Shown: positions 7,328-58,570, counted from the stretch's first letter. The stretch is 64,000 nt of DNA from Gemmatimonadota bacterium (GCA_003223415.1 QHUY01000015.1:14115-78114), one strand, 5' to 3'. Translations and numbers: made by a program. The notes: generated by a model not told the origin, from the letters alone.

Positions 7328-7374
7328 GCCCGCCGGCTCTACCACTTCCTCGCGTCTCGGCACATCTTCCCCGC

Positions 7375-13740: not shown

Positions 13741-14434
13741 TCGTTGGATAGTCCTGGCCGTACTTGTTCTTGTGGGGCTCCCACTTGTAGCCGCGGGCGT
13801 TGAGGGTGATCTGGAGGTCGACCGCCCCCCCCCCTCCCTCCCCCCCGGGCGTGACGGTGATGTCTTTCATCAGCTCGGTCGCGACCCGCTCGTGCCAGAC
13901 GTGCAGCTTGTACCGGCCCGCCGGGACGTCGGCGATCATGAACGCGCCGTCCCCCGCCGGCTGGGCGTACCAGCGTTTGGCCATAACGACGACGTACGCC
14001 ACCATCCGCGGATGCACGTTGCAGAACACGCGCACCAGCCCCGCGGCCGTGAACGTGTGGGCCTTGGCCTCGCCGCGGCCGTACAGCCCCAGATCGAACT
14101 GACCCGGCTCGCTCACCGAGAAGACGTTGTGGTTGAACGGATCGAGATTGGGGAACCGCACCGTCGAGCCCAGCGGGACAACGACCACGTGTGGCGCGTA
14201 CGCCTTGTCTCTAATGAAGATCTCCGCGGTCGCGGGCCGCGCCGCCGGCCCGGGGCCCTCCACGAAGATCACCGCGTCTCCGAGATCGGGGCTGGGCTTG
14301 TTGCCTTTCTCCAGGATGGTGACGTGGCCCGTCACCCGCGCGCCGCCCCCCCCACCCCCCACGCCCCCCTGCGCTCTGGATCCGGGCGGCGTGAGACACA
14401 TCAGCGCCGCGAGTCCCAATCCCCAACGCGTCAT
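13718..14434 (-). CDS. Secreted cupredoxin-like protein (putative type-1 copper site)
   Basis: Signal peptide, then candidate ligands His in DPFNHNVF and Cys/His/Met in FCNVHPRM. The C-terminal domain is beta-sandwich-like. Its 3' end overlaps the kinase start. Confidence 0.6.
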   Translation of the reverse strand: MTRWGLGLAALMCLTPPGSRAQGGVGGGGGGARVTGHVTILEKGNKPSPDLGDAVIFVEGPGPAARPATAEIFIRDKAYAPHVVVVPLGSTVRFPNLDPFNHNVFSVSEPGQFDLGLYGRGEAKAHTFTAAGLVRVFCNVHPRMVAYVVVMAKRWYAQPAGDGAFMIADVPAGRYKLHVWHERVATELMKDITVTPGGEGGGGAVDLQITLNARGYKWEPHKNKYGQDYPTNAGLERY

Positions 14435-41387: not shown

Positions 41388-42445
41388 CGAGCCGTCAGTT
41401 TCTCCTCATCGTCGCCATCGCCCAGGGCATGCTGTTCGTCGCGCTGGTCATCCTCATCATTCTGAATCGCTGGATCCGGCTGCGCCGGCGCGCCAAGGTC
41501 AACCCGCGTCAGATCGAGCTCGACGCGGTCATGCAGCGGTGGGCGCTGGGCCAGGCAAGCCAGGACGAGGTCCTCCGAGCGTTGGCGCGGCTGCCGGTGC
41601 CGATCGCGATCGACGCGCTCGTCACCTGGTCCGCCCGCGTTGCGAGCGAGCGGTGGCAGGAGCTGTCGCGGGGGCTCGAGAGCCAGTGGTGGGCGAGGGC
41701 AGTGCGCGCCAACAGCCGCTCGGCCCGCTGGTGGAAGCGGTTGGACTGTGCCCGCTTCCTCTCGGTCGCGGCCACGCCGCGCGACATCGGCCGCGTGCGG
41801 CAGCTGCTGCGCGACCCGCACCCCGCCGTGGAGCTCGCCGCCGCGACGACGCTCGAGCGGGTCGACAGCCCCGTCTTGGTGGCCGCGGCGCTGGACCAGC
41901 TGCCGTTCCTCGGCCCCACCGTCCAGGCCTACTACGCAAGCGTGCTCAAGCGCGCGCGCCCGGCCGTCCTGCGACATCTGCAGCACCTGTTTCGGCGGCA
42001 GGGCGACCCCCGGCTCCCCCGCATCGTCGAGTTCGCCGGGCGACTGGAGGAGCCGGTGCTGCGGGAGCCGTTCACGACGCTCGCCACCCATCCGGAGGCG
42101 GAGGTCCGAACCCAGGTGGCCCGCGCCCTCGGCAAGTTCCCGCACGCCGAGTCGGTCGCTGCGCTCGGCTTCCTCGTCCAGGACGAGGCGTGGCCGGTGC
42201 GTGCTCAAGCCGCCCGCTCGCTCGGCATGATCGCCGATCCAAGCACCCTCCCCGCTCTGCGAGAGGCGCTTCGCGACACCGAGTGGTGGGTGCGGTTGCG
42301 CGCGGCCCTCGCCCTCACGCGCTTCGGCGCAGGCGGCCGGAACGCGTTGCTCGAGGCCGAAGTGGGCCCGCACGCGGAGGCCCGTGACATGGCAGGGCTG
42401 GTCCTCGGGCTCTCACTGCAGGCCCTGTCGGAGTACGCCGCGTGA
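41384..42445 (+). CDS. Membrane-anchored HEAT-repeat protein
   Basis: N-terminal TM, then repeated HEAT-like units (DPHPAVELAAATTL, EAEVRTQVARALG, DEAWPVRAQAARSLG, DTEWWVRLRAALAL). GTGA overlap with the upstream gene. Confidence 0.7.
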   Translation: MTSRQFLLIVAIAQGMLFVALVILIILNRWIRLRRRAKVNPRQIELDAVMQRWALGQASQDEVLRALARLPVPIAIDALVTWSARVASERWQELSRGLESQWWARAVRANSRSARWWKRLDCARFLSVAATPRDIGRVRQLLRDPHPAVELAAATTLERVDSPVLVAAALDQLPFLGPTVQAYYASVLKRARPAVLRHLQHLFRRQGDPRLPRIVEFAGRLEEPVLREPFTTLATHPEAEVRTQVARALGKFPHAESVAALGFLVQDEAWPVRAQAARSLGMIADPSTLPALREALRDTEWWVRLRAALALTRFGAGGRNALLEAEVGPHAEARDMAGLVLGLSLQALSEYAA

Positions 42446-43839
42446 GCCACCTGATTCAGGCGAGCGACGTCATCATCCTGGCCTACTTTCTGGCACTCAA
42501 CACCATCTACGCCCTCCTGCTGGTGTTGTCGATCCCGGAGATCTGGGAGCAAACCCGTCTGGCCGAGGACGAGGACTTCCAGCGCCTGATGCAGAGCGAC
42601 GCCCTGCCGCCGATCACGATCCTCGTCCCGGCCTACAACGAGAGCGCCACCATCGAGGCGAGCGTCACGGCGATTCTCACGCTCGAATATCGGACCTTCG
42701 AAGTCGTTGTCGTGAACGACGGCTCGAAGGACGACACCCTGGAGCGACTGCGGCACGCGTTCGACCTGTACGAAGTGCCGCGCACGTACCCCGAGACGAT
42801 TTCGACCCAGGCGCTGCGCGGCGTGTACCGGTCGCGCACCCGCACCCGGCTGCTGGTCATCGACAAGGAGAACGGCGGCAAGGCGGATTCGCTCAATGCC
42901 GCCATCAACGCCAGCCGCTTCCCCCTCGTCATCGCCGCGGACGCCGACACGCTCATCGAGCCCGATGCGCTGCTCCGGCTCACGCGTCCATTCCTTCTCG
43001 GCCGGCGGATCGCCGCAGTCGGCGGGACCGTGCGCGTCGCCAACAGCTGCACCGTCCAGGACGGCCGCGTGACCGACGCCCGTGTCCCTCGTCGCTTCCT
43101 CCCCGGCATCCAAGTGGTCGAGTACCTGCGCGCCTTCCTGTTCGGCCGCCTCGGCTGGAACCGCCTCGGCGGTAGCCTCGTCATCTCCGGCGCCTTCGGA
43201 CTGTTCCGCAAGGAATACCTCATCGCCGTCGGCGGGTACCACACAACGAGCGTCGTGGAGGACCTGGACCTCGTCGTGCGCCTGCACCGTCATCTGCGGC
43301 GCGAGAAGGTCCGCTACGAGATACCGTTCATCCCCGATCCCGTGGCCTGGACGGAGGTCCCCGAAACAGGACTGGTCCTGGGCCGCCAGCGCGAGCGTTG
43401 GCACCGCGGGCTCATCGCCGCGATGTGGGAGTACAAGGGCATGCTCTTCAACCCACGCTACGGCCGCGTGGGACTCCTCGCCGTGCCGTTCTACACCCTC
43501 GGTGAGATGCTCGCGCCGGTCGTGGAGGTGCTCGGCTACGTGATCACCGGGCTGGGCGCGGCGTTCGGGGTGATCAACATGTCGTTCGCTCTGCTCTTCG
43601 TGCTCGTGGCATGGGGCTACGGAATGCTGCTTTCGCTCTGGGCGGTCGTTCTCGAAGAGGTGAGCTTCCGACGCTACCGGCGCCCCGGCGATCTCGCACG
43701 CCTGCTCCTGTACGCCGTGCTCGAAACCCTCGGCTACCGCCAGCGCACCGTCTGGTGGCGGCTGCGGGCGTTCTTCACCCTACGCACGCAACGCCGGGTG
43801 TGGGGCGAGATGACGCGCAAGGGATTCGCCACCTCATGA
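42442..43839 (+). CDS. Family-2 processive glycosyltransferase (PgaC/NfrB/YaiP-like polysaccharide synthase)
   Basis: ILVPAYNE, VVNDGSKDDT, ADADT, ISGAFGLFRK, VVEDLDL, GRQRERWHRG (QxxRW-type), flanking TM helices. GTGA overlap. Confidence 0.9.
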   Translation: MSHLIQASDVIILAYFLALNTIYALLLVLSIPEIWEQTRLAEDEDFQRLMQSDALPPITILVPAYNESATIEASVTAILTLEYRTFEVVVVNDGSKDDTLERLRHAFDLYEVPRTYPETISTQALRGVYRSRTRTRLLVIDKENGGKADSLNAAINASRFPLVIAADADTLIEPDALLRLTRPFLLGRRIAAVGGTVRVANSCTVQDGRVTDARVPRRFLPGIQVVEYLRAFLFGRLGWNRLGGSLVISGAFGLFRKEYLIAVGGYHTTSVVEDLDLVVRLHRHLRREKVRYEIPFIPDPVAWTEVPETGLVLGRQRERWHRGLIAAMWEYKGMLFNPRYGRVGLLAVPFYTLGEMLAPVVEVLGYVITGLGAAFGVINMSFALLFVLVAWGYGMLLSLWAVVLEEVSFRRYRRPGDLARLLLYAVLETLGYRQRTVWWRLRAFFTLRTQRRVWGEMTRKGFATS

Positions 43840-44597
43840 GCGCTCGCATCGTCGCGGCCGCGTTCGTCCTGGTCACCCTGCCAGCCAGCCGCCTGGGCGC
43901 CCAAACTGTGCGCGTTGCGACCTGGGGCTCCTACGAGGGCGTTACCGGCAGCCAGAACTGGACCACGGCCGGCGCGCAGGTCACCTTCGCGCCTCCCCAG
44001 GGACACGCTGCGTGGGTCGCCGGGGAGCTGACGGGCCGTTTCGGTGCGCAGGACGGAACCGCGCGCGTGGGCGGCGTCCTCCACCCGATCCCGCGCTGGT
44101 GGATCACCGTGGAAGCGGGGACTGCCGCGCGGCCGGAGTTCATGCCCAAGAACTCGTGGGAGGCGGACGCTACGGCGCTCGTCGCGCGTCGCGCCTCCCT
44201 CGGGCTCAGCTACCGCCGCTGGAACTACGTGGTGGGACCTGTGGACTTCGTGATCCCCCACTTCGCACTCGAGACCCAGTCCATAGCCTGGGACCTGCGG
44301 GTGTTCGTGTCGCGCAACCCCTCGCGGCGCACCGACGCCGCGTTCTACGTCCGGGCCGCCGCGCCCCTCGTCCGCCGCGCTGGCTGGTTGATCTCCGCCG
44401 GGGCTGGCCGGGAGAGCTATCTGGTGGGCGTCGCCCCTTCGCAGCAGGTACGCTCGCTCCAGACGCTCACCGGGGCGGCGGGTGTCCGTGTCAACGCCGG
44501 GAAGGGCGTCACGATCCGGATGGAGGTGAGCGTAGTGAGATCGCGACCGGTGCTGTCACGGCGCGGGCTCACGCTGGGGGCGGAGCGCCGCCTGTAG
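43836..44597 (+). CDS. YaiO-like outer-membrane beta-barrel protein
   Basis: Signal peptide ...SRLGAQT. Approx 250-aa beta-rich protein. ATGA overlap with the GT2 gene. The family call is from memory of the GT2/YaiO pairing. Confidence 0.55.
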   Translation: MSARIVAAAFVLVTLPASRLGAQTVRVATWGSYEGVTGSQNWTTAGAQVTFAPPQGHAAWVAGELTGRFGAQDGTARVGGVLHPIPRWWITVEAGTAARPEFMPKNSWEADATALVARRASLGLSYRRWNYVVGPVDFVIPHFALETQSIAWDLRVFVSRNPSRRTDAAFYVRAAAPLVRRAGWLISAGAGRESYLVGVAPSQQVRSLQTLTGAAGVRVNAGKGVTIRMEVSVVRSRPVLSRRGLTLGAERRL

Positions 44598-44661: not shown

Positions 44662-47600
44662 TCAGAAGCGCCGGTGCCAGAACTCCGCCGCGGTCGGGAA
44701 GAGCTTCTCGGTGAGCGCCGCCGACAGCGTCACGAACACGCCGTGCCCGCCGCGCACGGAGAAGTCCGGATCGTTCAGGTTGCCGAACCGATACCCGGTC
44801 GCGACTTCGAGCCCATTCACCGGCCGGAAGGCCAGGGCGGGTGCTCCGTCCCACGCCGTGGCGCCGCTCGTCCGCTCCGTTACCAGCCGGGCGTCGGTGC
44901 GCACGCTCAGCCAGGGACTCAGCGCGACGTTCACGCGGCTGCCGACGTAGTCGGCCCAGGCCGTGAGCGTCCGGGGGGTACCGTCGGAGTAGACGCCATC
45001 GGCTTGCGTGCGACGCACCGCATAGCGGGTGCCGATTTCGAGCGTCGGGACCGGCGTCCAGATCACCTCGGCCGCACCGATCAGCTTGCGCTCGGCGCCC
45101 TGCGACACCAGCACCCCGGCCCCCAACGGATTGCGCGCGTCCGTCCACTGAAGCTTCGCGAGCATGTTCAGCCGGTCGGTGTGCGCGGGCCGGAACGCGA
45201 GACCCCACAGGCTCGACAGCCGGCGGGACAGCGGGGCGCCGGGCCGGGCCTCCTGCGAGAACTCTTGCCGCGACAGCAGGGCGAGCGATGCGTCGAAGGC
45301 CACATCGCCTGCCACAGTGGCGAGCCGGGTGGATTGGAGTGCGCCGTCCTTGTACTCGCCCCGGGCGCTCAGCCGATACGGTGCGCCTTGCGGCAGCAGC
45401 TCCAGGCCGGCACCCGCCGACCAGTAGTCGCCCTCGGTCTGGAGGAACGGCAGCGCGCGCACGGGATCCGCGATCGCGGCGCGACCCACGCCCACGCGCC
45501 GCTCGAACAGCACGTTCACCGCGAGGCCCGGCGCGAGCTGCATCCGGTTGCGGAGCCCAACGACGGCCGCGTTGTTGGCGCCGCTGGCACCACCGATCAG
45601 CTCATAGCTGCCCCACGCCTGCGTCCCGCGCCCCAGGTCCGTGCGCAGGCCGAGGCTCGAGATCGAGTAGTGGCCCTGGCTGTCTGGGCGCGAGACCGCG
45701 CGCTGGCTCGCCTCGAGCGCCACGGCGGGTGCGATCTGATACGTCCCGCCGAAGCCCCAGACCTCCGGTGAGATATCCGGGCCGGCGAGGCGGAAGTGGC
45801 GCCGGGCTTCGGTCCAGAACTGCAGCTGCGGGGACGCCACCCACTTCGCTTTCAGCTCGCCCGCCGTCACCTCGCTGGACGCGGTACTGGTCCCCGACAC
45901 CTGATCATTCGCCACGCCCGCATCCACCTGCAAGGCGGGGCCGAAGGTTTGCACGATGCCGACGCGCGTGTGCTCGCGGCCGACGCCCAGCAGCTCGAAG
46001 TCCTGGCGGGCGTGCTCGGCCCGCAACTCGGTCCCGCCGAGCCGGAACCCGCCTTTCAGGTTTTCCTCGGTCACGCCGGGTTGGAGCGCTACGTTGGACG
46101 GGTTCGTGAACTCGCGGCCGATGCGCATATAGCCGGCCCCGATGTTCACCGCCCCGTTGAACAGGCTGTAGCTGGCTTTCACCGAGGCGGCGACGCCGGT
46201 GGAATCGCCCTGCTCCGCGTAGGCGACCTCTGCGCCCACGTCCAGGGCGCCGAACCGCAGCACCCGCACGTCACCACCGACCAGGCGGTAGCTGGTGATC
46301 GCCTGCTCGGCGTTCACGGCGGTGATGCCGATGCGGAGCGAGTCCACGAGCCCTGCGCCGACGAGCGGCCGCGCGTCCAGCGCCGCCCGGGCACCCGCCA
46401 CGAGCCGCTGCTCGCCGCCGGTGGCTGCCTCGAAGGTGGCGACGATGAACACCGGGTTGCCGTACGCGTCGGCAGCGGGAATCGGCTGCTTGAAGAGGAC
46501 GACGCCGGCGGTGTAGTCGATCTGGTAATCCACGAACCGAGTCAGAGACTGCGTGGCCACGGCGCGCTCGGCGTTCTGGAGGTCCCGCGTCTCGACGCGC
46601 AGGTTCTCCGTCCCCGGCAGCATGTCGGCGGCGAGCTGATAGGGGCCGGAGATGCCCGCGCCGCGGAGCTGCAGCTGTCGCAGTGCCTGGGACGTCAGGC
46701 TGCCGAAGCCACTCCAGGTGACCGCGCCGGTGGTGACGTGGGCGGCGAGCCCCGTCACGGCCCGCCGGTATTGCGCGAGGCGCAGGCCGCTCGCGAAGTC
46801 CGTGGTGGAGAGATCGCCGAACGCCGCCCAGTCGAAGCCGTGCTCGAGCCGGGCCGAGACCCAGTTCTGCGAGGCCGTGCGGGTCTGGAGCTGGCTCGCA
46901 TCCCCGAGGATCGGGTACTGGGCCTCCGCCAACGGATCGGCGCTGCGGCCGAAGGCACCCTGTCCGTCGTTCAGCCGGCGGGAGTCCACCCCGAGCGTGA
47001 GCGACGTCCGGGCATCGAGCCGGCCGCGCGCGGTCAGTGCGCCGTACGCGTCGGGGCTCGCCCCCGCGCCCACCATCCCCACGCCGGTGACCGTGAGCGG
47101 ACGCACCTCGGGGAAGATCTCGAGCGGCACCGTGGCCCGGGCGTCGCCCGACTTGAGCTCGAGCACGCCGCGCCGCACCTCCCGGCCCGGCCGCAGGCTC
47201 ACGACCAGCCAGCCGGCGGAGTCTGTAAGCTGTTGCAGCCCTACCGAGGACGCGTCCGCATCCGCCCCCACCGGCTCCGCGCCGTTCGCGCTCACGGTCA
47301 CGTACGCCGGCTGCACGACCGGAACGCCCCAGGCGTCCAGCACCCGCGCTTTCGTGGCGGCCACCGTGTGCCCATCCGCCATCAGCGTGAGGCGGCTCGC
47401 GCTCACCGCGAACCTGGCCGGGAGGCCCGTCACGTGCACGGCGATGCTGTCCCAGCGCTCGCTGCCCCACGAGTTCTTGATCCGCGCCCGCAGGCGATGC
47501 GGGCCGCGGGCCAGCGGAACGGCGATGAAGTCGAGGACGCCGTCGATCCGCACCGACGCGCTGTCGATCGGCGCCGTGCCGTCGTACAGCACGACCCTCG

Positions 47601-47866
47601 CGCCCGGCTCCCCCTTAACGCCTACGTACACGCGATCGGCCCGGAGCACGGTGCCGTCGACGGGAGCGAAGATCTCGACGCCGGGACCACGCACCAGTGA
47701 CGCCCTGCCCTCCGCCGTCCGCTCAACGGCCGTCCGGGCGGGGGCGACGACCACGGTCTCGGCCGCCGTCGTCCGGATCGTGTCGGCCGGCACTCCGGCG
47801 GCGATCGGCGCCGGAGGGGGAGTGGATGGGGCGGGCGGGGCAGGCGGCAGCTCGGGCGCGTCGACG
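44662..47866 (-). CDS. C-terminal segment of the giant surface protein: P/A linker, Big_1-like Ig domain and approx 800-aa beta-barrel-like region
   Basis: Part of ORF 44662..47964 downstream of the poly-G. It contains LTLMADGHTVAATKARVLDAWGVPV (invasin/intimin-type Big_1 look), then long alternating beta-strand sequence ending ...FWHRRF. Confidence 0.7.
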
Positions 47867-47894
47867 CCCCCCCCCCCCCCCCCCCCCCCCCCCC
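47867..47894. repeat. 28-nt poly-C homopolymer
   Basis: Counted directly. It separates the plausible upstream frame (ORF 47622..50429) from the plausible downstream frame (ORF 44662..47964). Confidence 0.95.
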
Positions 47895-50429
47895 GCGAAC
47901 TACCGACACCGTCCGGCCCACATGCAGCCACATAGTGGCCGAGTCGCGCCGCTCCGACGACCACGCGACGATGCGAATCTCGGCGCCCGGGCGCGCGGGT
48001 GGGATCGGGATCGCCTCGTTGTCGATCCAGTCGTAGCGCGTGAACACCGTGCCGTCGCGGTACACGATGGCCGAATCGGCGACCGGGGTGAACCCTACCA
48101 GGGCGTCCAACGGCGCCGCGAGCGGCTGCCGGACGGTCACTTCGTACCGCACGACCGCACGCCGGCTGCCGACGAGACGAGGCTCGGGGCTGAACGAGAG
48201 CACGGCGGAATCGCGCGCCTGCGGCACCGGTACCGCCACGAACTTGAACTCCACGGGTCGGCCGCCTTCGCTGGGCTGGCGCCCCTCAGGGGGTTGGTGC
48301 CCTTGAGCGGGTTGGCGTCCTGGGACGGGTTGGCGCCCTTCGGCGCGGCGCGGCGCGAGCGGGACGACGCGGAAGTCCACCCGCGGAGTCGTCCAGCCGG
48401 AGGCCTCGACGATCTGAATGTCGTCGCTCACCAGTCGGTAGTCCTGGGAGAGCGACTGCGGGTCAAGCCGGAACGCGTGCCGACCCGGCCGCAGGTTCGT
48501 GAACGAGAACTTGCCGGTGGAGTCGGTCGTGACGACCTGGCCATCCTCGGTCCAGATGTCGATGCCTGCCAGGCCGCCGTCCGTCGGCCGTTGCACCTCA
48601 CTGCCCTCCCGATCGACCCACACCTTCCCGATCACCGCTCTGGTGTCCATCGGCCAGGCGCGCCGCACCTGCACCCAGGCCACGGCCTGCGGCGAGACGG
48701 GCTGAAGGGCGCCGGCGCGCGCGCTGGCGATCGCCCGGACCTCGGCCACGGGCCCCGGCGCGGAGGCGAGCGCCACCACGTAATGCAGCGTCCGCGTCGC
48801 CCCGGGTGCGAGCGGCGCCATCGTCACGAGAATCAAGTGATTCCCAGCCACCTGCACGGAATCCGCGCCGACTGCGGACCCGCGCGCGTAGCTGCCACCT
48901 GTGGGCAGCGTGTTGTCGATCCGGATGTCGGAGATCGGCACGATGCCGGCATTGTGCACGACCTCGGTGTAGGGAATCACCTCGCCGATGCCGACCTCCA
49001 ACGCCTCGGCTGTCAGGTCGAGTCCCAGCGCCGCGGTGGGCGGTCCGATAAGCGCCAGCTGGGCGGCGCTAGCGCTCTGCGCGGTGGCGTTCGTCCCAGT
49101 CAGCGTGGCGACGTTGGTCGCCCACACCGTATCCCGCACCGTGCCGCTCACCTGCAGCACGAGATTGATGACCCCGGTATCCCCCGGCGCGAGGTTGCCC
49201 AGCGCCCAGCTCAACACCGGTCCCACCGTGGACGGGGCCGGCGCAGCGCTCACGTAATTCAGGCCTGCCGGAAGCGTGTCGGTGAGGACGACATTGGACA
49301 CCGGGGCGGCGCCGGCGGCGTCGCCGTAGCGCAGCGTGAATTGGACCTGCTGTCCGACCGGCGCCTGCGGCGGGCCCACGAGCGCCTTAGTCAGGGTGAG
49401 CGCCGGGACGAGGACGTTCGTCTGCACGGCGTTGGAAAAGGCCGTGTCAGAGGTTCCCGCCCGCACGTAAGTCGCGTGGCCGCGGTTCGTCACGGTGCGC
49501 GCCGGCCCCGAATCGACCTTGGCCTGGAACGTCACCGTGCCCCCCGTGCCGCCGGCCACGACCCCCAGGGTCACGACCACCACGCCCTTTCCCGCAGCGA
49601 CGAGGGAGCCGGCATCGTCACCCGTGGCGTCGGTCAATGGAGTACCGTTCCAGCGCATCGATCCGGCGACGTAGGACACACCCGCGGGGATACTGTCCGC
49701 GAGCGTGGCGCTGGAGTCCGTCCCGCTGCCGGCGGCGGCGTAGTCGAGGGTATAGGTGAGCACGTCGCCCGTGACCGCCGTCAGGCGGTCCACCTGCTTG
49801 GTGAGCCCGATCGTGACCGCGCCCGCCGCTACGACGTCGAGCCGATCCGGCACCGAGCTGCTCACCGCGGCGTTGAACCGGCTGGTGGCGGTCACCGTGA
49901 TCGTGTCGCTCACGCCCACGCTGGCGCCGCCCGGCACCGCGACCCGCACGAGCAGGGAGGCGGCTCCGCCGTAGGCCAGCGGGACCGGCCCCGTGAGCAG
50001 GGAGTCGCCGGCGTCCAGGATGCCGTTACCGTTCCAGTCGCGATACTGCGTGACCGGCCATCCGCGGGCGGAGACGGCGACCACGGTGAACGAATCGGCT
50101 CCGTTCCCGGCGTTGGTGAGCGTGTGCGCGAAGACAGCGGTTGCGCCCGGGGCTCCGCTGGTGGCTCGCGGCGGCTGCAGCGTCACCCCGGCCACCTGCC
50201 CGACCAGGAGCGCCACCGTGTCGGAGGCCAGGGTGTATCCCGTCCCAGCCAAGGTGAAGGACAGGGTCGCCCAGTTGGAGACCTGGGTCCCCGCTTGCGT
50301 TCCTTGGGCTTCCAGCGCCGGTGCGGCACGCAGCCCGAAAGCAAAGAGGAAGGCGGCGGCCCAGCGCGCGGCCGCACGGCCGCGGCGGGCGCACCGCCCC
50401 CTCTCCACTGTCCGGGTCCCGAGTCGCAT
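47895..50429 (-). CDS. N-terminal segment of the giant surface protein: signal peptide, multiple DUF11-type repeats and an SdrD-B/CarboxypepD_reg-like domain
   Basis: Repeated pattern PG..V.Y.L...N.GNG.D.F plus LTK....TAV.GDVLTYTL...LAD.IPAGVSYV. GKVWVDREG...GLAGIDIWTEDGQVVTTDSTGKFSFTNLRPGRH. A short GRQP-type repeat (EGRQPVPGRQPAQGHQPPEGRQPSEGGRP). Confidence 0.75.
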
Positions 50430-50442
50430 GGGCCGTCGTCCG

Positions 50443-51666
50443 TTAGTTGATGCTGACCCGCAGCTCGAACGTGGCGCTGGCGCTCGCCGCCAGAACGCCG
50501 CCCGTGCCCGTGTAATTCCCGGTCACGTTCTGCCCGCTCACCACGATGCTCCAACCGGTGCTCGAGCTCGTCGAGACGTAGGTCACTTGCGCCGGCAGCG
50601 CGTCGGTCACCTGCACGCTGGACGCAGACGTGCCCCCGTTATTGGTCACGGTGAACCGGTAGCGGATGACCTGCCCGGGGACGACGCTTCCGGCGACGGG
50701 AGTGACCCCGTCGTCCAAGAACGCCGCCTTCGCGAGCGTCAGGTTCGGCTTGATGACCGTCAGGTCCATGAAGCCGTCGTCGAACGTCGCCGGCTGCCCC
50801 ACCGACCGGGCGCGCAGATACAGCGTGTCCGTCGAGCCGCCTGCCACGTTCGCCACGTTGTAGACGACGGTGACCGCCTGCGACGCCGCGGGCGCCAACG
50901 AGATGCGCGCGCTGTCTCCCGCGGCCCCGTTCACCGAAACGATCGTGATGACCGGCGAGCCCGGGCTCGTGGCGATGAGGTCGATGTTGTCGTTCCCGTT
51001 CCCGTTGTTCCCGATGCTGAACGTGAACGAATAGCCGCTCCCCGGGAGGCGCTGCACGTTTTGGCCCCCGTGGGGCGACGTCGCCACGCCGTACACCGTC
51101 GCCGGCGTGATGGTGCTGAAGGCGCTGCCCGAAGCCGCCGGCGTGCGTCGCGAATTGGCGGTGAGCGTGTAGATCGTGCTCACGCCACCTTGCCCGCTCG
51201 CCACGTTATAGACGATCTTGAGCGTGATCGAGCCGCCCTGGGCGATGCCCACGGTCGCCAGCGCCGTGTTCAAGGCCGCCAGCGTGCCATAGGTCGTGGC
51301 CCCGTAGCGGTACCCCGTCACCGTGATCACCCCCGCGACGGAGATGTTCTCGGAGATCGTCATGCTGTCCGTGCCGTTCCCCGCGTTCATCACTGTGAAC
51401 GTCATCGTATCCGCCGTACTGGGCGACGCGGAGCTCGGCGTTGGAGTGTTGGCGGTCACGCTCACGCCGGCCTTGAAGCCAACCGTCACCGAGACCGAGC
51501 CGCTGACCGCCGTGTAGGGGTTGCTATTCGCGTCGGTGTAGGTCGCGGTCGCCGTATTCGTGATGACCGTGCCTTCCGGCGTCTGCGCCAGCGCCCCGCC
51601 GGCGGCGACCACCAGGGCGACCGCGGCAAGGACGAGGCTCTCTGTCCACTTCAGGTTCCCGAGCAT
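50443..51666 (-). CDS. Secreted DUF11-repeat protein B (407 aa)
   Basis: GGAGGA RBS 7 nt before the ATG, signal peptide ...GGALAQT, and a C-terminal DUF11 unit (PGQVIRYRFTVTNNGGTSASSVQVTDALPAQVTYVS). Its central domain is paralogous to protein A (52625..53875). Confidence 0.8.
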   Translation of the reverse strand: MLGNLKWTESLVLAAVALVVAAGGALAQTPEGTVITNTATATYTDANSNPYTAVSGSVSVTVGFKAGVSVTANTPTPSSASPSTADTMTFTVMNAGNGTDSMTISENISVAGVITVTGYRYGATTYGTLAALNTALATVGIAQGGSITLKIVYNVASGQGGVSTIYTLTANSRRTPAASGSAFSTITPATVYGVATSPHGGQNVQRLPGSGYSFTFSIGNNGNGNDNIDLIATSPGSPVITIVSVNGAAGDSARISLAPAASQAVTVVYNVANVAGGSTDTLYLRARSVGQPATFDDGFMDLTVIKPNLTLAKAAFLDDGVTPVAGSVVPGQVIRYRFTVTNNGGTSASSVQVTDALPAQVTYVSTSSSTGWSIVVSGQNVTGNYTGTGGVLAASASATFELRVSIN

Positions 51667-51705
51667 CTGTGATTCCTCCTCAAGGTTCGTTTCAGCGGCC
51701 GCGGG

Positions 51706-52218
51706 CTACTTCGCGTCGCCTGGGGCTTCACTGACCTGGGTGCGAAACTCCGCCATCACCCGCGCTTGCGGCGCCAAGGATCCCAGCACCGTCCAACGGA
51801 CGTGCGTGTACAGCTGACGCGGCGCAGGCTTCTCCACCTTTCGGCCCTCTTCGACCACCTGGATCGTCGGCTGAGCCGAATAGCTCTTGCCGCCGTCGAT
51901 CGAGTATTCGATCCGCGCGGGGTGATCCGCCGCGGCCGAGCCGGGCACGTAGATCATCCCCTTGGGGATCGGGTCGACGAATTGGATGTTCTTCACGGGG
52001 CCGGCCGTGACGTTCGTGAACACCAGGGCGTAGCGGATCACATCGCCGGGGCGCGCCACGGCGCGAGTGTCCTGCCCGCCGGCTGTTGCCACCGTCATGT
52101 TGTGGGCGGTGATCACGAGCGGCTTGGGGGGGGGGACCTGCGCGTGCGCGGCCACCACTCGCGGCGCGACCAGCGCGGCGCTCATCAGCCCGATCGACAG
52201 CAATCGCAGCAGTTTCAT
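51706..52218 (-). CDS. Secreted single-DUF11-domain protein (170 aa)
   Basis: AAGGAG RBS 8 nt before the ATG of MKLLRLLSIGLMSAALVAP...AHAQ. PGDVIRYALVFTNVTAGPVKNIQFVDPIPKGMIYVPGS. The longest ORF (to 52254) would give an ATGA overlap with the zinc-ribbon gene. Confidence 0.75.
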   Translation of the reverse strand: MKLLRLLSIGLMSAALVAPRVVAAHAQVPPPKPLVITAHNMTVATAGGQDTRAVARPGDVIRYALVFTNVTAGPVKNIQFVDPIPKGMIYVPGSAAADHPARIEYSIDGGKSYSAQPTIQVVEEGRKVEKPAPRQLYTHVRWTVLGSLAPQARVMAEFRTQVSEAPGDAK

Positions 52219-52250
52219 GGGTGCCATCTCCTTGTGAGTTCTCTTGTGAG

Positions 52251-52448
52251 TCATTGTTTGGCTCGCTTTGCGTCGGACCGGCCCGCGTCCCGCGGGTCGA
52301 GCGTGGTGCCGGCTGCGTCAGACTCGCCGGTGTGGGCGTCACCCCACCGGAAGACCGTTTCGCATTGCGGGCACACCACGAGCTCGCCCAGGACCTGCGT
52401 GCGGCCGAAGAACTTGAGCGCCGAACACCGGGGGCAGCGAAGTACCAT
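52251..52448 (-). CDS. MJ0042-type zinc-ribbon protein (65 aa)
   Basis: CPRC...(18)...CPQC with the FRW motif after the second pair. AGGAG 10 nt upstream of the ATG. Confidence 0.6.
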   Translation of the reverse strand: MVLRCPRCSALKFFGRTQVLGELVVCPQCETVFRWGDAHTGESDAAGTTLDPRDAGRSDAKRAKQ

Positions 52449-52480
52449 TAGCGACCTGCTCCTTTCGCCAGCGCGAGATG

Positions 52481-52494
52481 GCAGGTCCTATGCC
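52481..52494 (-). promoter_or_regulatory. Candidate sigma-54 promoter (GGCAT-N5-CTGC)
   Basis: The minus strand reads CGGCATAGGACCTGCC. The GG and GC dinucleotides have canonical -24/-12 spacing. It lies approx 30 nt upstream of the zinc-ribbon ATG with an RBS in between. Confidence 0.35.
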
Positions 52495-52570
52495 GGTTCA
52501 GGCCGATGGTGCTAATGGATTGTGGATGAGCGAGTTACGACGTCTAGGGGAGGGGGGGGAGAGCGCCGCG

Positions 52571-52600
52571 CGTTACTGAACGGTAACGTCGGGAGTAACG
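52571..52600. promoter_or_regulatory. Cluster of three GTTAC/GTAAC half-sites (candidate enhancer)
   Basis: CGTTACTGAACGGTAACGTCGGGAGTAACG, approx 80-105 nt upstream of the candidate promoter at 52481. Confidence 0.3.
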
Positions 52601-52624
52601 AGAAAGCCCGGCTTTCCGTGCCGC

Positions 52625-53875
52625 TCAGCGGATCTGCGCGACAAACTGAAGCGTGCCCGTGTTATTCGGAGCCGAGGAGCTGAGCGGGTTCTGCAAGCGC
52701 CAGCGGACGCGATTGACGCAGCGGTCGTAGCCGGCCGGCGCGCTGCACGCGCCGCTGGCCGGAACGTACGTCCACGTCGCGCCGCCGTTGTTCGAGTAAT
52801 CGACCACGACCGACACACCGGCGGGCAGCGTGCTCACGACGCTGCCCACCTGGAACTGGACCGCGGCGGGAAGCGTATCCACGACCACGACGCTCGCGGC
52901 GTTGCTGCTGCCGATGTTGCTGATGGCGACCGTATACGCCAGGTTCGCGCCAGGCAGCTGGGTGCCGCCGGGACTCACGCTCTTGGCGATCGTCATGGTC
53001 GGCCGCACCACGGTGAGCGTCAGCTTCCCGGTGTCCGCTGTCGCCGGACTCCCGACCGCGCGGGCCTTGAAGACGAGAGTGTCCTTCGTTCCCGACGCCG
53101 CCATGGCCACGGCATACGTCACAGTGGCGATGGCGGAGCTGCCCGCCACGAGGCTCGTCAGGCGGGCACTGTCGGGGTTGGCGCCCTGCGTGATCCCCGG
53201 GCCGGCGATCGAGACGGTCGTGAGCACCGTGCCGGGCCGCCTCGCCGTCAGCAGATCGTAGCTAGTCAAGCCGTTGCCGGTGTTCGTCACCGTGAAGGCC
53301 GCCGTGTAGTTGACGCCGTTGCTCGGCAGCTGGCTGGCGGTCGCAGCGTGCGGGCTCACCGTCACGGTGAACACCTTCGCCACGATCGTCTTGGTGCGGG
53401 CGTCGGTTGCGACGACGGCGCCGCTGGGGCCGCCGGTGATCAGCCCCAGGCGGCTCGCTGCGGACGGGGCGGTGAAGTTCGTGAAGTTGAGCCCGGAGAC
53501 CGTGATCTGCTCGCCATTCCCGAAGTTCGTGGTGACGTTCATGAAGAGATCCAGGTTGCCGTTCGCATAGCTCACGCTCGTCGAGACCTTGCCTGCGGCC
53601 GAGCCCGTGATCGTCGCGGTCGTGAAGGTGGGGTCCCACGTCATGTTCAGGCCCGCCGGAATCCGCACGCGGATGTCGGTGCTCGCCTTGATTTGGCCGC
53701 CGGAAGTTGCTGTGATGGTGATCGGGCTCATCGCTGTGCTCGGATCGCCCACCACGAAGGTCTGATTGGCAGCCGAGGAAATCGTCTGCGCGGCGAGGGG
53801 GGCGGGGCACACCGTCGCCCCGACGCCGAGGCAGGCGAGCAGGATGCCCGCGCTGAGCGAGAGCTGGGTCTTCAT
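52625..53875 (-). CDS. Secreted DUF11-repeat protein A (416 aa)
   Basis: Start taken at MKTQLSLSAGILLACLGVG...AAQ. C-terminal DUF11 unit (PGANLAYTVAISNIGSSNAASVVVVDTLPAAVQF). Its central domain is paralogous to protein B. Confidence 0.8.
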   Translation of the reverse strand: MKTQLSLSAGILLACLGVGATVCPAPLAAQTISSAANQTFVVGDPSTAMSPITITATSGGQIKASTDIRVRIPAGLNMTWDPTFTTATITGSAAGKVSTSVSYANGNLDLFMNVTTNFGNGEQITVSGLNFTNFTAPSAASRLGLITGGPSGAVVATDARTKTIVAKVFTVTVSPHAATASQLPSNGVNYTAAFTVTNTGNGLTSYDLLTARRPGTVLTTVSIAGPGITQGANPDSARLTSLVAGSSAIATVTYAVAMAASGTKDTLVFKARAVGSPATADTGKLTLTVVRPTMTIAKSVSPGGTQLPGANLAYTVAISNIGSSNAASVVVVDTLPAAVQFQVGSVVSTLPAGVSVVVDYSNNGGATWTYVPASGACSAPAGYDRCVNRVRWRLQNPLSSSAPNNTGTLQFVAQIR

Positions 53876-53891
53876 GTCACCCGGACCAAGC

Positions 53892-53906
53892 GCAAGCGCT
53901 GTGCCC
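53892..53906 (-). promoter_or_regulatory. Candidate sigma-54 promoter (GGCAC-N5-TTGC)
   Basis: The minus strand reads GGGCACAGCGCTTGC. This matches TGGCACG-N4-TTGC at all invariant positions with exact spacing, 16 nt before the ATG at 53875. Confidence 0.5.
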
Positions 53907-53951
53907 ACCGCTCTAGGATGCAGCCGTAGTTAGGCCAACGAGTTAGCAACC

Positions 53952-53984
53952 GGTTACGTGATCTTCGGTTACCGTGCGGTAACC
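53952..53984. promoter_or_regulatory. GGTTAC ... GGTTACC-GTGC-GGTAACC palindrome cluster (candidate enhancer, or hairpin after the EBP gene)
   Basis: Perfect 7-bp palindrome with a 4-nt spacer plus a third half-site. It lies in the 85-nt gap between the EBP stop and the promoter candidate. Confidence 0.35.
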
Positions 53985-53993
53985 ACGGCGGTA

Positions 53994-55409
<1,416 letters not shown>

Positions 55410-55472
55410 CGGTCCGATATTTGTCCCGCGCCCCGCTAATATTGGCGACCGCAACGCGCGGAGCCAGGACCT

Positions 55473-55844
55473 ATGGCCGGCACCTTCCGGGCTCTGATCA
55501 TCGATGACGACCGCGACCTCCTCTTGCTCGTACGCAAGACGCTCGAGTTCATGGCGGGGTGGGAAGTCGTGACGGCGGCCTCGGGCGCCGCGGGGATCGA
55601 GCTGGCCCGGAGCGCCGCTCCGAACGTGGTCTTGGTGGACGTGATGATGCCCGAGATGGACGGCTACGAGGTGTGCCGGCGCCTCAAGGCGGAACCCGCG
55701 ACCGCCGGCGTCCCCATCGTTTTGCTGACGGCCCGCCGCGACCTCGATCAGCGCCAGCTCACGGCGGCGGGGGCAGCCGGCGTGCTGTTCAAGCCGTTCC
55801 AGCCGGATCAGCTGGCCCGTCAGCTCCGCGAGTTGTGCCCGTGA
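55473..55844 (+). CDS. Single-domain response-regulator receiver
   Basis: ALIIDDD...VLVDVMMPEMDG...FKP. 123 aa. Confidence 0.85.
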   Translation: MAGTFRALIIDDDRDLLLLVRKTLEFMAGWEVVTAASGAAGIELARSAAPNVVLVDVMMPEMDGYEVCRRLKAEPATAGVPIVLLTARRDLDQRQLTAAGAAGVLFKPFQPDQLARQLRELCP

Positions 55845-58570
55845 CCGCGGCCGATCCCCTCAGCGAAGTCCGGGCCGAGTTCGCGGCCGGGCTGGGGCAG
55901 CGGATCCAGACGATGCGGGCGGTGCTGGAGCGACTGGAGCACGGCTTCCAGCGCGAGGACGCGGAGGCCCTGTACCGCGCCGCCCATTCTTTGACCGGGA
56001 CGGCCGGGAGTTTCGGCGCCGATGGGCTCGCGCACGTAGCGGGCGATCTCGAGGGCCTGGCGCGCAGCTGGCTGGAGCACGGGGACTCGTCGCCTGAGGA
56101 GTGGCGCGTGGCCGCCGCGGCCATCGGGGAGCTCGACCTCGCCGCACGTGAATACCGCGCCACCGTGCAGTCGGGCACTGCCCGGTCGTCGGCAGCCCGC
56201 CTCGCGGTCGTGGGGGAGCTCTCGTCCCTGATCCACGCCGCCGTGGACATGCGCGAGATCTTCCAGGGCGCGATCCAGAAGGTCCAGCGGGTGCTCGACT
56301 TCCGGCGGGCCAGCGTAGTGCTCATCGACGAGGCGGCGACGCACTACTACGTCCACACGCTGTACGACCGGGCGCGCGGCGGGTTCGTCCCGGGGGAAGC
56401 GGTGTTCTCGGTCGCGCAGGGCGTGACGGGCGAGGCGATCCGCACGGGGCGACCGATCCGCGTGGACTCGCTGCCGGGCACTGAGGGCATCCTGCTGCAG
56501 GAAGGGAAGCGCGTCTCGGCGATGATTGTGCCGTTGCACGTCGGTGACCGCGTGATCGGCGCACTGAATTTCGGGCACGAAGACGCGGGTCATTACACGG
56601 AGGACGACCTCGATTGGGCGGTCGTCCTGGGCCGGCAGATCGAGACCTCACTCTACTATTCCAAGCTGCTCAGCACCATCGCGCAGCAGCGCGAGGCCCT
56701 GGCGCGGGAGCACGCGGCCATGCAGGCCCAGCGGAACCAGCTGGAGGCGCTGATCGACGCCAGTGACGCCGCGATCATGCTGGTCGGGCCCGATCGCCGG
56801 ATCGCCTACGCGAATGCCGAGATGGCCAAGCTGGTGGGGATTCCCCGGGAGGCCGTGCTCGGAGCGAGCCTGGAGAGCCTGCACCGCTTCTTCGCGGGGT
56901 CCTTCGTCGATCCGGCTGCGCTCGCCGCTCAGGGGGAGGCCCTGGCGGGCGAGGCAACGCTGCGCGACCGCGTGGACCTCGCGTTCCCCCGGCGGGCGGT
57001 TTATCAGCGCGAGGTGGCGCCCGTGCGGGACCGCGGCGGGGCGCTGCTCGGGCATATCGTGCTGTACCGGGACGTGACCCACGAAGTGGAGGTCGAGCGC
57101 GCGAAGTCCGAGTTCGTCTCCGTGGTCAGCCACGAGCTCCGCACCCCGATGACGTCGGTGAAGACGTCGTTGGCCCTGTTGCTCGCCGGGGCCGGCGGAC
57201 CCCTGGAGGCCGCCCCGAGAGAGCTGCTCGAGATCGCCCTGCGCAACGCCGACCGCCTGATCCGGTTGGTGAACGATCTCCTCGACCTCTCGCGCCTCGA
57301 GGCTGGGCGCATGGAGTTCCGGCTCGAGCCCGTGTCGCTCGAGGACAGCGTGGCGGCCGGGCTGGAGACAGTGGCGGCGTTCGCCGACGAACAGGGGGTG
57401 ACGCTCACCACCGGGCCGTCCGCTGAGCCGCAGGTCGTGCTGGGCGTGCGCGATCGCGTGCTGCAGGTGTTCGTCAACCTCCTCGCGAACGCGATCAAGT
57501 TCTCGCCCCGTGGCGGCCTGGTGGAGGTGCGGTGGTGGCGCGAGGACGACTGCGCCGTAACTCGCATCTCGGATCAGGGGCCGGGGATCCCGCCCGACAA
57601 GCTCGGCGTCATCTTCGAGCCGTTCACACAGCTCGACAGCTCGACGACGCGGGAGCACGGCGGCGCGGGCCTCGGCCTCACGATCACCCACCGCATCGTC
57701 GACGCGCTCGGCGGCGCTGTGTGGGCGGAGAGCGAGGTCGGGAGCGGAGCACGGTTCTTCGTCCGCTTGCCGCTGGCTTCGCCGCAGCAGCTCGTCCAGC
57801 CACCGGCCGCGACCGCCGCGCCCACGCCAGTAGAAGCCACGGTGCTCCTCGTGCACGGCGACTCGGACTGGCGGCGCCTGGCCGCGGCGCGCCTGGCGGC
57901 CGAGGGCTGGCGCGTCACGCCGGTCGCGACCGGTGGTGAAGCGCTGGCCTGCTTGGACCAACAGCCTGTGGACCTCGTCCTCGCAGCGCTGGAGCTGCCG
58001 GACATGCACGGGCTGGACTTCGTCCAGCGGCTCCGCCGGGGGACAGCGACGTTCGACACCCCCGTGCTGGTCGTGTCCGACGCGGAAGTGAGCGCCGCGA
58101 CTCTCGAGTACGGCGCTGAGGAATGGGTACCGGCGGACCCGCAAGAGCTGATCGGTCCGGCTCGACGGCTGCTGTCGGCCGGCGGAGGGAGGAGGGGAAG
58201 GGGGCGACCCGTCGTGCTGCTGGTCGAGGACGACCCGGCGGTGCGTGACGCCTTGACTAAGATGTTGCGCCGGGCCGGCTACGTGTGCCTAGGAGTGAGC
58301 GACGCCGCCGCCGGCCTCGCATTCGTGCGCAGCCGCCGACCGAGCCTGATCATCACCGACCTCCAGATGGCAGGCATGGACGGCCTGGCCTTCCTCGAGG
58401 AAGTGCGCCGCCAGCCGGAGTTGCGCGACGTGCCGGCGATCTTGCTGAGCGCCCACGGGGCCGAGGCCGCGTCCGAGCGGGTGCGCCGACTCGGCGCGCA
58501 TTTTGTCGCGAAGCCGTTCGACACCGAGGCACTTCTCGACCAGGTCCGCGACATGGCGACGAAGCCCTAG
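55841..58570 (+). CDS. Hybrid sensor histidine kinase (Hpt-GAF-PAS-HisKA-HATPase-REC-REC)
   Basis: Hpt AAHSLTGTAGSFG, GAF-like segment, PAS-like segment, H-box SHELRTPMTS, N-box NLLANAIKFS, G-boxes DQGPGIP and GGAGLGLTI, then two receiver domains. GTGA overlap with the upstream receiver gene. Confidence 0.9.
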   Translation: MTAADPLSEVRAEFAAGLGQRIQTMRAVLERLEHGFQREDAEALYRAAHSLTGTAGSFGADGLAHVAGDLEGLARSWLEHGDSSPEEWRVAAAAIGELDLAAREYRATVQSGTARSSAARLAVVGELSSLIHAAVDMREIFQGAIQKVQRVLDFRRASVVLIDEAATHYYVHTLYDRARGGFVPGEAVFSVAQGVTGEAIRTGRPIRVDSLPGTEGILLQEGKRVSAMIVPLHVGDRVIGALNFGHEDAGHYTEDDLDWAVVLGRQIETSLYYSKLLSTIAQQREALAREHAAMQAQRNQLEALIDASDAAIMLVGPDRRIAYANAEMAKLVGIPREAVLGASLESLHRFFAGSFVDPAALAAQGEALAGEATLRDRVDLAFPRRAVYQREVAPVRDRGGALLGHIVLYRDVTHEVEVERAKSEFVSVVSHELRTPMTSVKTSLALLLAGAGGPLEAAPRELLEIALRNADRLIRLVNDLLDLSRLEAGRMEFRLEPVSLEDSVAAGLETVAAFADEQGVTLTTGPSAEPQVVLGVRDRVLQVFVNLLANAIKFSPRGGLVEVRWWREDDCAVTRISDQGPGIPPDKLGVIFEPFTQLDSSTTREHGGAGLGLTITHRIVDALGGAVWAESEVGSGARFFVRLPLASPQQLVQPPAATAAPTPVEATVLLVHGDSDWRRLAAARLAAEGWRVTPVATGGEALACLDQQPVDLVLAALELPDMHGLDFVQRLRRGTATFDTPVLVVSDAEVSAATLEYGAEEWVPADPQELIGPARRLLSAGGGRRGRGRPVVLLVEDDPAVRDALTKMLRRAGYVCLGVSDAAAGLAFVRSRRPSLIITDLQMAGMDGLAFLEEVRRQPELRDVPAILLSAHGAEAASERVRRLGAHFVAKPFDTEALLDQVRDMATKP

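Follow-up and report, generated by a model that had tools for sequence, protein, structure and literature searches.

A predicted sigma-54-controlled CLIPPER (DUF11) locus of Gemmatimonadota that may encode a fibre joined by split domains and rooted in a giant beta-barrel

Introduction

In chaperone-usher pili, the tip subunit acts only as an acceptor, shaft subunits act as both donors and acceptors, and the terminator or anchor acts only as a donor (PMC11821415). In the TasA-like protein BsaA of Clostridium perfringens (10.1101/2024.11.04.621531) and in archaeal threads (PMC9715654), an N-terminal donor segment inserts into the neighbouring subunit, and a Lys-Asn isopeptide bond is then formed with an acid of the acceptor as catalyst; donor complementation followed by an isopeptide lock is, in this way, already known from monoderm bacteria and archaea. 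The DUF11 domain, which has been renamed CLIPPER in Pfam, presents a CnaA-like fold with an intramolecular Lys-Asn isopeptide bond (PMC12617251). Here, a locus of CLIPPER proteins is described in a stretch of 64,000 nucleotides (64 kb) of a Gemmatimonadota bacterium (GCA_003223415.1 QHUY01000015.1:14115-78114), hereafter the window, whose first letter is position 1 of all coordinates given below.

The locus consists of six co-oriented minus-strand open reading frames (ORFs) at 44662-53908, which an earlier note, made from the sequence alone, had regarded as a functional unit resembling an undescribed pilus, fibre or S-layer-like assembly. All six were recovered in ORF scans and in domain scans with Pfam and NCBIfam, and they represent genes A, zinc ribbon, S, B and a giant gene of ~1,920 codons, which form one unit. 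To our knowledge, almost nothing is known of the surface biology of Gemmatimonadota, which are abundant soil bacteria. The reading that we consider somewhat probable is that the locus encodes a sigma-54-controlled CLIPPER fibre with A at the tip, B in the shaft and the giant protein as anchor, in which subunits are joined by hairpin complementation, probably locked by isopeptide bonds, and the whole is rooted in the outer membrane.

CLIPPER domains divided between neighbouring proteins

A complete CLIPPER domain is built in a fixed order, comprising the motif L.L.K with the isopeptide Lys, the motif V.V.D.LP with the catalytic Asp, the motif TF.a.V, and a terminal hairpin, V.N.A.a.Y...SN.V...V, with the isopeptide Asn. 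B, A and S all end right after TF.a.V, before the terminal hairpin, and their C-termini read ...ATFELRVSIN, ...GTLQFVAQIR and ...VMAEFRTQVSEAPGDAK (last residues APGDAK), respectively. The Pfam DUF11 match of B stops at profile position 84 of 114, which is the C-terminus of the protein, and such truncated endings are conserved in dozens of loci. The missing piece is found at the opposite end of two of the proteins, since mature B and the mature giant protein, which begins QGTQAGTQVSNWATLSF...DTVALLVG, each open with an orphan copy of the hairpin. This segment is the most conserved part of B, being nearly invariant in 52 orthologues, in which K313 and D355 of the acceptor domain are invariant; it also stands at the mature N-terminus of most giant orthologues with complete N-termini.

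When the B hairpin was appended to the truncated domain of B, the DUF11 match grew from profile positions 11-84 to 11-105 of 114 and its score from 48.3 to 56.3 bits. The same hairpin carried the Pfam matches of A (from 35.1 to 43.5 bits) and S (from 15.6 to 23.4 bits) likewise to position 104-105. In a weak alignment to the CLIPPER crystal structure 9IFR (PMC12617251), D355 and N37 of B fell on the catalytic D748 and the isopeptide N806. Both Lys and Asp are retained in A and B, whereas S keeps the catalytic Asp but presents Ala at the isopeptide Lys position.

As judged by sequence comparison, B is modular, with a giant-like N-terminal half and an A-like C-terminal half: the hairpin and first domain show 38% identity to the giant N-terminus, and the second domain and acceptor show 42% identity to A. 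The paralogy between A and B proposed in the earlier note therefore stands for their C-terminal halves (42% over 185 aa), to which the likeness is confined, and fails for the full length. Among the structures that Foldseek ranked best for the B model are a pilin fusion and extended arrays of Ig domains in tandem.

Gene fission at the predicted junction

A natural rearrangement bears on this anatomy. In a sister clade with giant proteins of the OmpA type (e.g., P0026), an extra protein of ~300 aa is encoded between B and the giant gene. It corresponds to residues 11-305 of the window giant (49% identity, E 3e-81), and its C-terminus reads ...TVTFQVRVGG. In the same clade, the giant protein, past its signal peptide, starts VVSNTAAATY... 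(motif VxNTAxATY) and aligns from residue 313 of the window giant onwards (47% identity over 382 aa, E 1e-115). The two sister-clade genes thus divide the CLIPPER domain D1, which is intact in the window, in the 7-residue loop (306-312) that precedes the Asn hairpin. The divided form, with a ~300-aa protein whose last residues are ...TFQVRVG*, was found in at least 10 loci and the fused form in ~40. A fission placed exactly at the predicted junction is what would be expected if a truncated domain were completed by the N-terminal hairpin of another polypeptide.

Gene content and domain composition

The coordinates of genes, domains and regulatory sites are collected in Table 1. The ORF of gene A spans 52625-53908, with its real start at an internal ATG, and the product matches DUF11 (PF01345, 25.4 bits; TIGR01451, 2.5e-8); its N-terminal part, which has no family match in the window, corresponds in other genomes to DUF2341 and Laminin_G_3. 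B also matches DUF11 (46.3 bits, 6e-12). The single-DUF11 secreted protein of 170 aa described in the earlier note is S, whose ORF (51706-52254) contains a conserved start, M13, and whose product carries a signal peptide and matches TIGR01451 at 1.1e-11. The small DUF11 proteins are CLIPPER/DUF11 structural proteins and not enzymes, a possibility that the same note had raised. The 65-aa MJ0042-type zinc ribbon was equally recovered, its match being just over the cutoff (TIGR02098, 21.8 bits vs 20.9). The zinc-ribbon stop lies 32 nt upstream of the conserved S start and overlaps by 4 nt with an upstream ATG of the S frame. The statement that adjacent genes overlap or are separated by only 13-39 nt has to be corrected for A and the zinc ribbon, between which there is a gap of 176 nt containing a predicted promoter.

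The giant gene comprises ORFs 47622-50429 and 44662-47964. The content ascribed to it beforehand was found: a signal peptide, SdrD_B, P/A-rich linkers, and DUF11 units, of which Pfam recognises three, alongside one CARDB-like unit. The DUF11 match reaches 83.3 bits over 3 stretches, and the full Lys/Asp/Asn triad is present in D1 and D2. SdrD_B scores 26 bits in the window giant and 36.5 bits in the orthologue P0026, and a profile of the giant family matched SdrD among Protein Data Bank (PDB) sequences at 1.8e-15. In place of the one Ig domain that had been noted there are two Ig-like domains, which match Invasin_D3 and Big_1 in remote homologues.

By eye, the predicted signal peptide cleavage sites of A, B, S and the giant protein (LAA/Q, ALA/Q, AHA/Q and LEA/Q) all leave Gln as the first mature residue, which would permit pyroglutamate formation beside the donor hairpin.

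Table 1. Positions of the genes, domains, predicted regulatory sites and sequence break described in the text, ordered along the minus strand.
Feature	Coordinates	Strand	Description
Hybrid histidine kinase	55559..58570	+	Hpt-GAF-PAS-HisKA-HATPase-2xREC (Pfam); divergent from operon
NtrC-type sigma-54-dependent response regulator	53994..55454	-	REC-AAA+-HTH_8; Sigma54_activat 2.3e-61, Response_reg, HTH_8
Upstream activator site 1 (predicted)	53968..53983	.	Palindrome GTTACCGTGCGGTAAC
Sigma-54 type -24/-12 promoter 1 (predicted)	53892..53905	-	GGCACAGCGCTTGC, 16 nt upstream of A ATG
Gene A	52625..53875	-	416 aa; signal peptide, unique N-terminal domain, CARDB-like domain, C-terminal CLIPPER without terminal hairpin
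Upstream activator site 2 (predicted)	52572..52587	.	Palindrome GTTACTGAACGGTAAC
Sigma-54 type promoter 2 (predicted)	52481..52494	-	GGCATAGGACCTGC, 32 nt upstream of zinc-ribbon ATG, with GAAAGGAG between
Zinc-ribbon protein	52251..52448	-	65 aa, two CxxC motifs, without signal peptide
Gene S	51706..52218	-	170 aa from conserved Met; signal peptide and single truncated CLIPPER domain
Gene B	50443..51666	-	407 aa; signal peptide, donor hairpin, two CARDB-like domains, truncated CLIPPER acceptor
B donor hairpin	51478..51585	-	Residues 28-63, QTPEGTVITNTATATYTDANSNPYTAVSGSVSVTVG, start of mature B, with Asn37
B acceptor domain	50446..50751	-	Residues 306-407, Lys313 and Asp355, ends ...ATFELRVSIN-COOH
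Giant gene, N-terminal part	47895..50429	-	Signal peptide, donor hairpin, CARDB-like, three CLIPPER, SdrD_B, P/Q/G-rich repeat, unassigned ~120-aa domain
Giant donor hairpin	50199..50306	-	Residues 42-77, QGTQAGTQVSNWATLSFTLAGTGYTLASDTVALLVG
Intact CLIPPER domain D1 of giant	49407..49817	-	Residues ~205-341; K211, D245, N315
G28 run (C28 on + strand)	47867..47894	-	Breaks giant reading frame
Giant gene, C-terminal part	44662..47866	-	P/A linker, two Ig-like domains (~47116-47688), ~800-aa beta-barrel (~44713-47103); ends ...WHRRF

The C-terminal barrel of the giant protein

The ~800-aa C-terminus of the giant protein, which had been described as rich in beta strands and ending in Phe, was modelled as a barrel. 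For the last 1,067 residues, AlphaFold (AF2) gave an all-beta model, with a mean predicted local distance difference test (pLDDT) of 82.8 and a predicted template modelling score (pTM) of 0.70; it presents two Ig-like domains followed by ~40 beta strands, ~32 of them uninterrupted over residues 471-1051 (strand count estimated), suggesting a barrel of roughly 32-40 strands by this estimate. A small, well-predicted insert at model residues ~400-470 (~46456-46668; position estimated) constitutes the densest invariant cluster of the family.

No Pfam or NCBIfam match was obtained for the last 1,100 residues of the giant protein, and a family profile retrieved no relatives of the barrel among PDB sequences, since only SdrD and CLIPPER were matched, in N-terminal columns. 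Foldseek returned only very large barrels (SlpA, LptD, BtuB, SprA) at template modelling (TM) scores of 0.14-0.23 and root-mean-square deviations >20 A, and the usher was absent from the top 50 PDB fold matches. An usher, LptD, a TonB-dependent receptor and SprA of the type IX secretion system (T9SS) were rejected as identities of the barrel, having no family match and a fold likeness of TM ~0.2. A classical (type Va) autotransporter was rejected because there is no PF03797 match and the barrel spans ~800 aa, and an inverse autotransporter because there is no PF11924 match and the domain order is reversed. The C-terminal region is therefore not assigned by sequence to an usher, autotransporter or LptD family, an assignment that the earlier note had named as refuting its reading, and its fold shows a generic likeness to big barrels only. 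Plug, TonB-dependent receptor and SLH domains were likewise missing from Pfam/NCBIfam, Foldseek and PDB profile searches.

The Pfam and NCBIfam scans also bore out the absence of any chaperone, usher, sortase or secretin family from the locus and its flanks. Neither a PapD-like chaperone nor the usher PF00577 was found in the six proteins or the flanking genes, and no sortase is encoded in the locus, where the subunits end ...RVSIN, ...VAQIR and ...APGDAK, which are not LPXTG-type endings.

Predicted sigma-54 regulation

An NtrC-type sigma-54-dependent response regulator is encoded directly upstream of A on the same strand, its start being probably the Met of MIPKVYILDDD near 55409, and a hybrid histidine kinase lies beyond it, with a homologous kinase at the same position in orthologous loci. 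The palindrome GTTAC-N(2-10)-GTAAC occurs twice in the 64 kb, against 0.01 copies expected, both times as GTTAC-N6-GTAAC and in the two non-coding gaps of the locus. Moreover, the -24/-12 element GGCAY-N5-YTGC has two sites in the whole window, both on the coding strand and ~65-80 nt downstream of the palindromes. Orthologous loci show the palindrome at these two positions as well, and 36/36 of their copies carry a -24/-12 element 79-106 nt downstream, as opposed to 9% at random positions. A scan of the locus for sigma-70 promoters and intrinsic terminators found none.

These patterns indicate that the locus carries a conserved, predicted module of enhancer and sigma-54 promoters, whose conservation indicates that the two-component system forms part of one unit with the structural genes. 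The neighbouring kinase and NtrC-type regulator would act through the two GTTACC-N4-GGTAAC sites and activate both promoters, of which promoter 1 would drive A and promoter 2 the zinc ribbon, S, B and the giant gene. The first gene downstream of the second predicted promoter is the one for the small, cytoplasmic zinc-ribbon protein. The giant gene of locus L036 has, downstream of it (13722-14048), an extra GTTAC-N6-GTAAC palindrome with a -24/-12 element and then a zinc-ribbon-like ORF, which hints at a second regulated unit in that genome.

Conservation and spread

Co-occurrence was counted in 34 Gemmatimonadota species loci with at least 7 kb of upstream sequence. The N-terminal part of the giant protein was present in 33 of these, B in 32 (plus one frameshifted B), S in 30, an A-type acceptor protein in 26, the zinc ribbon in 21 and the NtrC-type regulator in 19 (62-83% identity), with constant gene order. 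The neighbourhood is thus preserved almost universally, and this extends across phyla. In the Latescibacterota locus L084, whose barrel is ~30% identical, A-like, S-like, B-like and giant genes follow in identical order, and the cassette shows the same donor and acceptor ends. The cassette was also found in further unnamed metagenome contigs.

A scan of one genome per species returned 155 carriers, the best 80 of which are all Gemmatimonadota. Among 214 close relatives of the barrel part, those with names are nearly all Gemmatimonadota, and most are fused to DUF11 and SdrD_B; an OmpA domain lies between stalk and barrel in about one fifth of relatives (~24 of the 120 orthologues listed) and also in the Latescibacterota giant. 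An exhaustive search with the barrel only gave 1,698 clusters at 50% identity. Barrel homologues in Latescibacterota and Thermodesulfobacteriota, at ~28-31% identity, share the architecture of CLIPPER, SdrD_B/CarboxypepD_reg and barrel. B has a steady length of ~405-415 aa among the ~240 homologues listed (of 760 and 959 found) and is plentiful in metagenomes, with clusters of up to 151 members. A search for a cultured carrier with a Gemmatimonas-clade B orthologue yielded metagenome-derived proteins only. The annotation of every homologue is either hypothetical protein or TIGR01451 repeat protein.

In the metagenomic relative L086 (3383-12105), the barrel (1,034 aa) is encoded on its own, by a gene that directly follows that of a 1,860-aa CLIPPER-OmpA protein. 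This arrangement suggests that CLIPPER-OmpA adhesins, such as the Acinetobacter protein behind PDB 9IFR, may need a partner barrel of the same family. Two further irregularities, a frameshifted B gene in L010 (5938-6585) and a masked stretch in the giant gene of L069 (~7000-7680), belong to draft genomes and are not to be counted as losses.

The homopolymer break in the giant gene

As the earlier note had recognised, the giant frame of ~1,900 aa is split at a homopolymer, which is a run of 28 G; one G more or two fewer restores a frame of 1,922 aa. In ~50 related genomes with complete sequence, the giant gene is a single frame of ~1,800-2,250 codons, and no run of at least 8 bases was found near the junction in 80 related loci. 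The sister contig L083, from another assembly and 98.6-99.9% identical, has G23 at the same place plus 40 further nt encoding AVVHNPVRPVTLTW, a peptide that is kept as ALVHNPSRPVVLSAW in a homologue of 84% identity. The absence of these 40 nt of conserved coding sequence implies that the window has lost real coding sequence at the run.

Two other runs on the same strand are present in the window, of which C26 at 155-180 frameshifts a TolC-like efflux gene and C27 at 38186-38212 occupies the expected HD motif of an HD-domain protein; across the 1.27 Mb that related loci cover, just one further run of at least 14 bases was found, that of L083. Because the run is absent from relatives, replaces real sequence and resembles runs that damage unrelated genes, the break is most likely an assembly artefact, either a gap or a poorly resolved stretch, and not a pseudogene or phase switch. 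Slipped-strand phase variation at G28 was rejected, as there is no conserved run in the 80 loci and the run replaces coding sequence instead of merely changing the frame.

Neighbouring plus-strand genes

A convergent block on the plus strand (39963-44597) contains four ORFs, encoding a Hpt-receiver protein, a HEAT-repeat protein, a family-2 glycosyltransferase and a 328-aa product without family, the last two overlapping by ~230 nt. The block is kept whole in the sister contig L083, and the glycosyltransferase and 328-aa ORFs also occur in L004. A link of these genes to the fibre, e.g., through glycosylation, is possible.

Proposed assembly and alternative explanations

In the proposed mechanism, A, S, B and the giant protein would be exported by Sec, and the hairpin of one protein would complete the truncated CLIPPER domain of the next. 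The hairpin Asn would in this way be brought beside the acceptor Lys and Asp, where a self-catalysed isopeptide bond could lock the joint. With an acceptor but no donor, and with a head that varies, A would be the tip; B, as both donor and acceptor, would polymerise rather than close on itself and build the repeating shaft; and the giant protein, as a donor only, would be the base. S, an acceptor devoid of the Lys, would bind hairpins reversibly and non-covalently, as a cap or chaperone. With its C-terminal barrel, the giant protein would anchor the base in the outer membrane, and this barrel would probably pass the stalk, and perhaps the subunits, through it to the cell surface. The interpretation as an undescribed pilus, fibre or S-layer-like unit was supported by the tests that were run, and the complementation of split isopeptide domains in trans favours a linear fibre over an S-layer.

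Several observations weigh against this reading. The fibre is a prediction from gene sequences, and all members are metagenomic. The best of five B models is moderate (pLDDT 76, the others being 58-63), and the B hairpin may instead pack on B's own domains. The hairpin Asn is replaced by Ser or Ala in some giant orthologues, so a covalent lock would not be universal. Self-packing of the hairpin leads to an alternative that we regard as unlikely, a finite hetero-oligomeric adhesin in which the B hairpin closes its own C-terminal domain in cis and the giant hairpin captures a single acceptor, A or S, giving a two- or three-piece assembly with an exchangeable head. Donors (B, giant) and acceptors (A, S, B) would balance without polymerisation, the heads of A do vary among genomes (e.g., Laminin_G_3), and the gene fission proves one trans joint only, that of the ~300-aa protein to the giant. 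On the other hand, the giant N-terminus, to which the N-terminal half of B is related by homology, offers its hairpin no acceptor in cis, only ~4 residues join the hairpin to the next domain, and the B model resembles elongated domain arrays. Furthermore, B is the most conserved and most length-constrained component, as expected of a repeating subunit.

The fibre that we favour also has to be weighed against a periplasmic location. Domains N-terminal to an outer-membrane barrel are normally periplasmic, and the fibre could be so too, all the more as many orthologues place a peptidoglycan-binding OmpA domain between stalk and barrel; in addition, A, B and S have no evident export route, and no secretion system is encoded nearby. 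The assembly would then underlie the outer membrane as a scaffold or tether it to peptidoglycan, with the barrel as an anchor only, and the CLIPPER proteins would line the inner face of this membrane as a layer, where chlamydial OmcB has reportedly been proposed to lie. The tether of Deinococcus SlpA, as the top fold match, points in the same direction. This location nevertheless seems doubtful, since CLIPPER, SdrD_B and Laminin_G-type heads characteristically belong to extracellular adhesins, and a surface adhesin of Acinetobacter with a CLIPPER stalk and an OmpA-like anchor would have the same topology provided that the chain passes through the membrane a single time (PMC12617251); a barrel of ~800 aa is also far bigger than an anchor requires. 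The OmpA domain itself suits a chain with one membrane crossing and an attachment to peptidoglycan, and equally permits the periplasmic location. It is very improbable, in our view, that the giant barrel acts as a large porin, as a channel for uptake or as an S-layer base, with the small CLIPPER proteins as accessory binding or lattice proteins that do not complement each other. Foldseek matches to BtuB, LptD and the S-layer protein SlpA, as well as the abundance of B in metagenomes, would suit such a role, but the TM scores are only ~0.2, Plug, TonB-dependent receptor and SLH domains are missing, and head-to-tail joints make lines, not sheets. Nor would such a role account for the split-domain anatomy or for a gene fission placed exactly at the junction.

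A wider claim can be put forward only tentatively, namely that the locus represents an unrecognised pilus class of diderm bacteria that polymerises without chaperone, usher, sortase or ATPase, by split-CLIPPER complementation and intermolecular isopeptides, and that is exported through and anchored by a new giant barrel family, either fused to the basal subunit or encoded by an adjacent gene. Such a class would span Gemmatimonadota and Latescibacterota, with partial evidence in a Thermodesulfobacteriota contig.

Significance and comparison with known systems

In the literature that was searched, neither a split CLIPPER domain nor a donor-strand system of DUF11 proteins nor this barrel is described, and there is no study of a family member. 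If the fibre reading is true, it would provide a new route to surface fibres in Gram-negative-type bacteria and a first function for a barrel family absent from databases, would suggest how CLIPPER-OmpA adhesins cross the outer membrane, and would offer natural orthogonal Tag/Catcher-like pairs of a CnaA-type fold, prearranged for ordered chains. The regulatory module, with its kinase, enhancer-binding protein, palindrome and two predicted sigma-54 promoters, represents a direct experimental handle for switching the locus on.

Chaperone-usher pili, such as type 1 and P pili, resemble the proposed assembly in that an incomplete Ig-like fold is made whole by a neighbour's N-terminal extension, with the same polarity and a large barrel at the base. 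However, the locus is devoid of a PapD-like chaperone and an usher, its donor is a two-stranded hairpin instead of one strand, its fold is the CnaA-like CLIPPER and its joint could be covalent. The 24-strand barrel of the usher also differs from that of the locus, which is fused to the basal subunit, much larger, and unrelated by sequence or fold ranking. BsaA and the archaeal threads follow the same exchange-and-lock principle as proposed here, but they have another fold, belong to monoderms or archaea without an outer membrane, and present neither a barrel anchor nor paralogues for tip, shaft and anchor.

Among the described CLIPPER adhesins, Acinetobacter silvestris B9T28_05395 (PDB 9IFR; PMC12617251) shares the Lys/Asp/Asn triad, the stalks and a proximal OmpA-like anchor, as in many giant orthologues. 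The domains of these adhesins are intact and their isopeptides intramolecular, whereas in the locus the domain is split between polypeptides and a dedicated barrel is present. Type Va and inverse autotransporters unite, like the giant protein, an Ig-rich passenger and a barrel in one polypeptide, and Big_1/Invasin_D3-like domains stand beside the barrel in remote homologues of the giant; nevertheless, their barrels have 12 strands, against ~800 aa here, the locus is without PF03797 and PF11924, and extra subunits would join its passenger. SlpA of Deinococcus radiodurans (8AE1) is the best fold match, a 30-strand barrel preceded by a peptidoglycan-associated module, but at a TM of 0.21 and 10% identity, with SLH and a coiled coil instead of CLIPPER and OmpA, and without partner subunits. 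In SpyTag/SpyCatcher and kindred engineered split isopeptide domains, finally, the triad is divided likewise, with Lys and the catalytic acid on one partner and the other reactive residue on a short beta segment; those pairs are man-made from CnaB-type domains, whereas the split of the locus is natural, CnaA-like and apparently arranged for chains.

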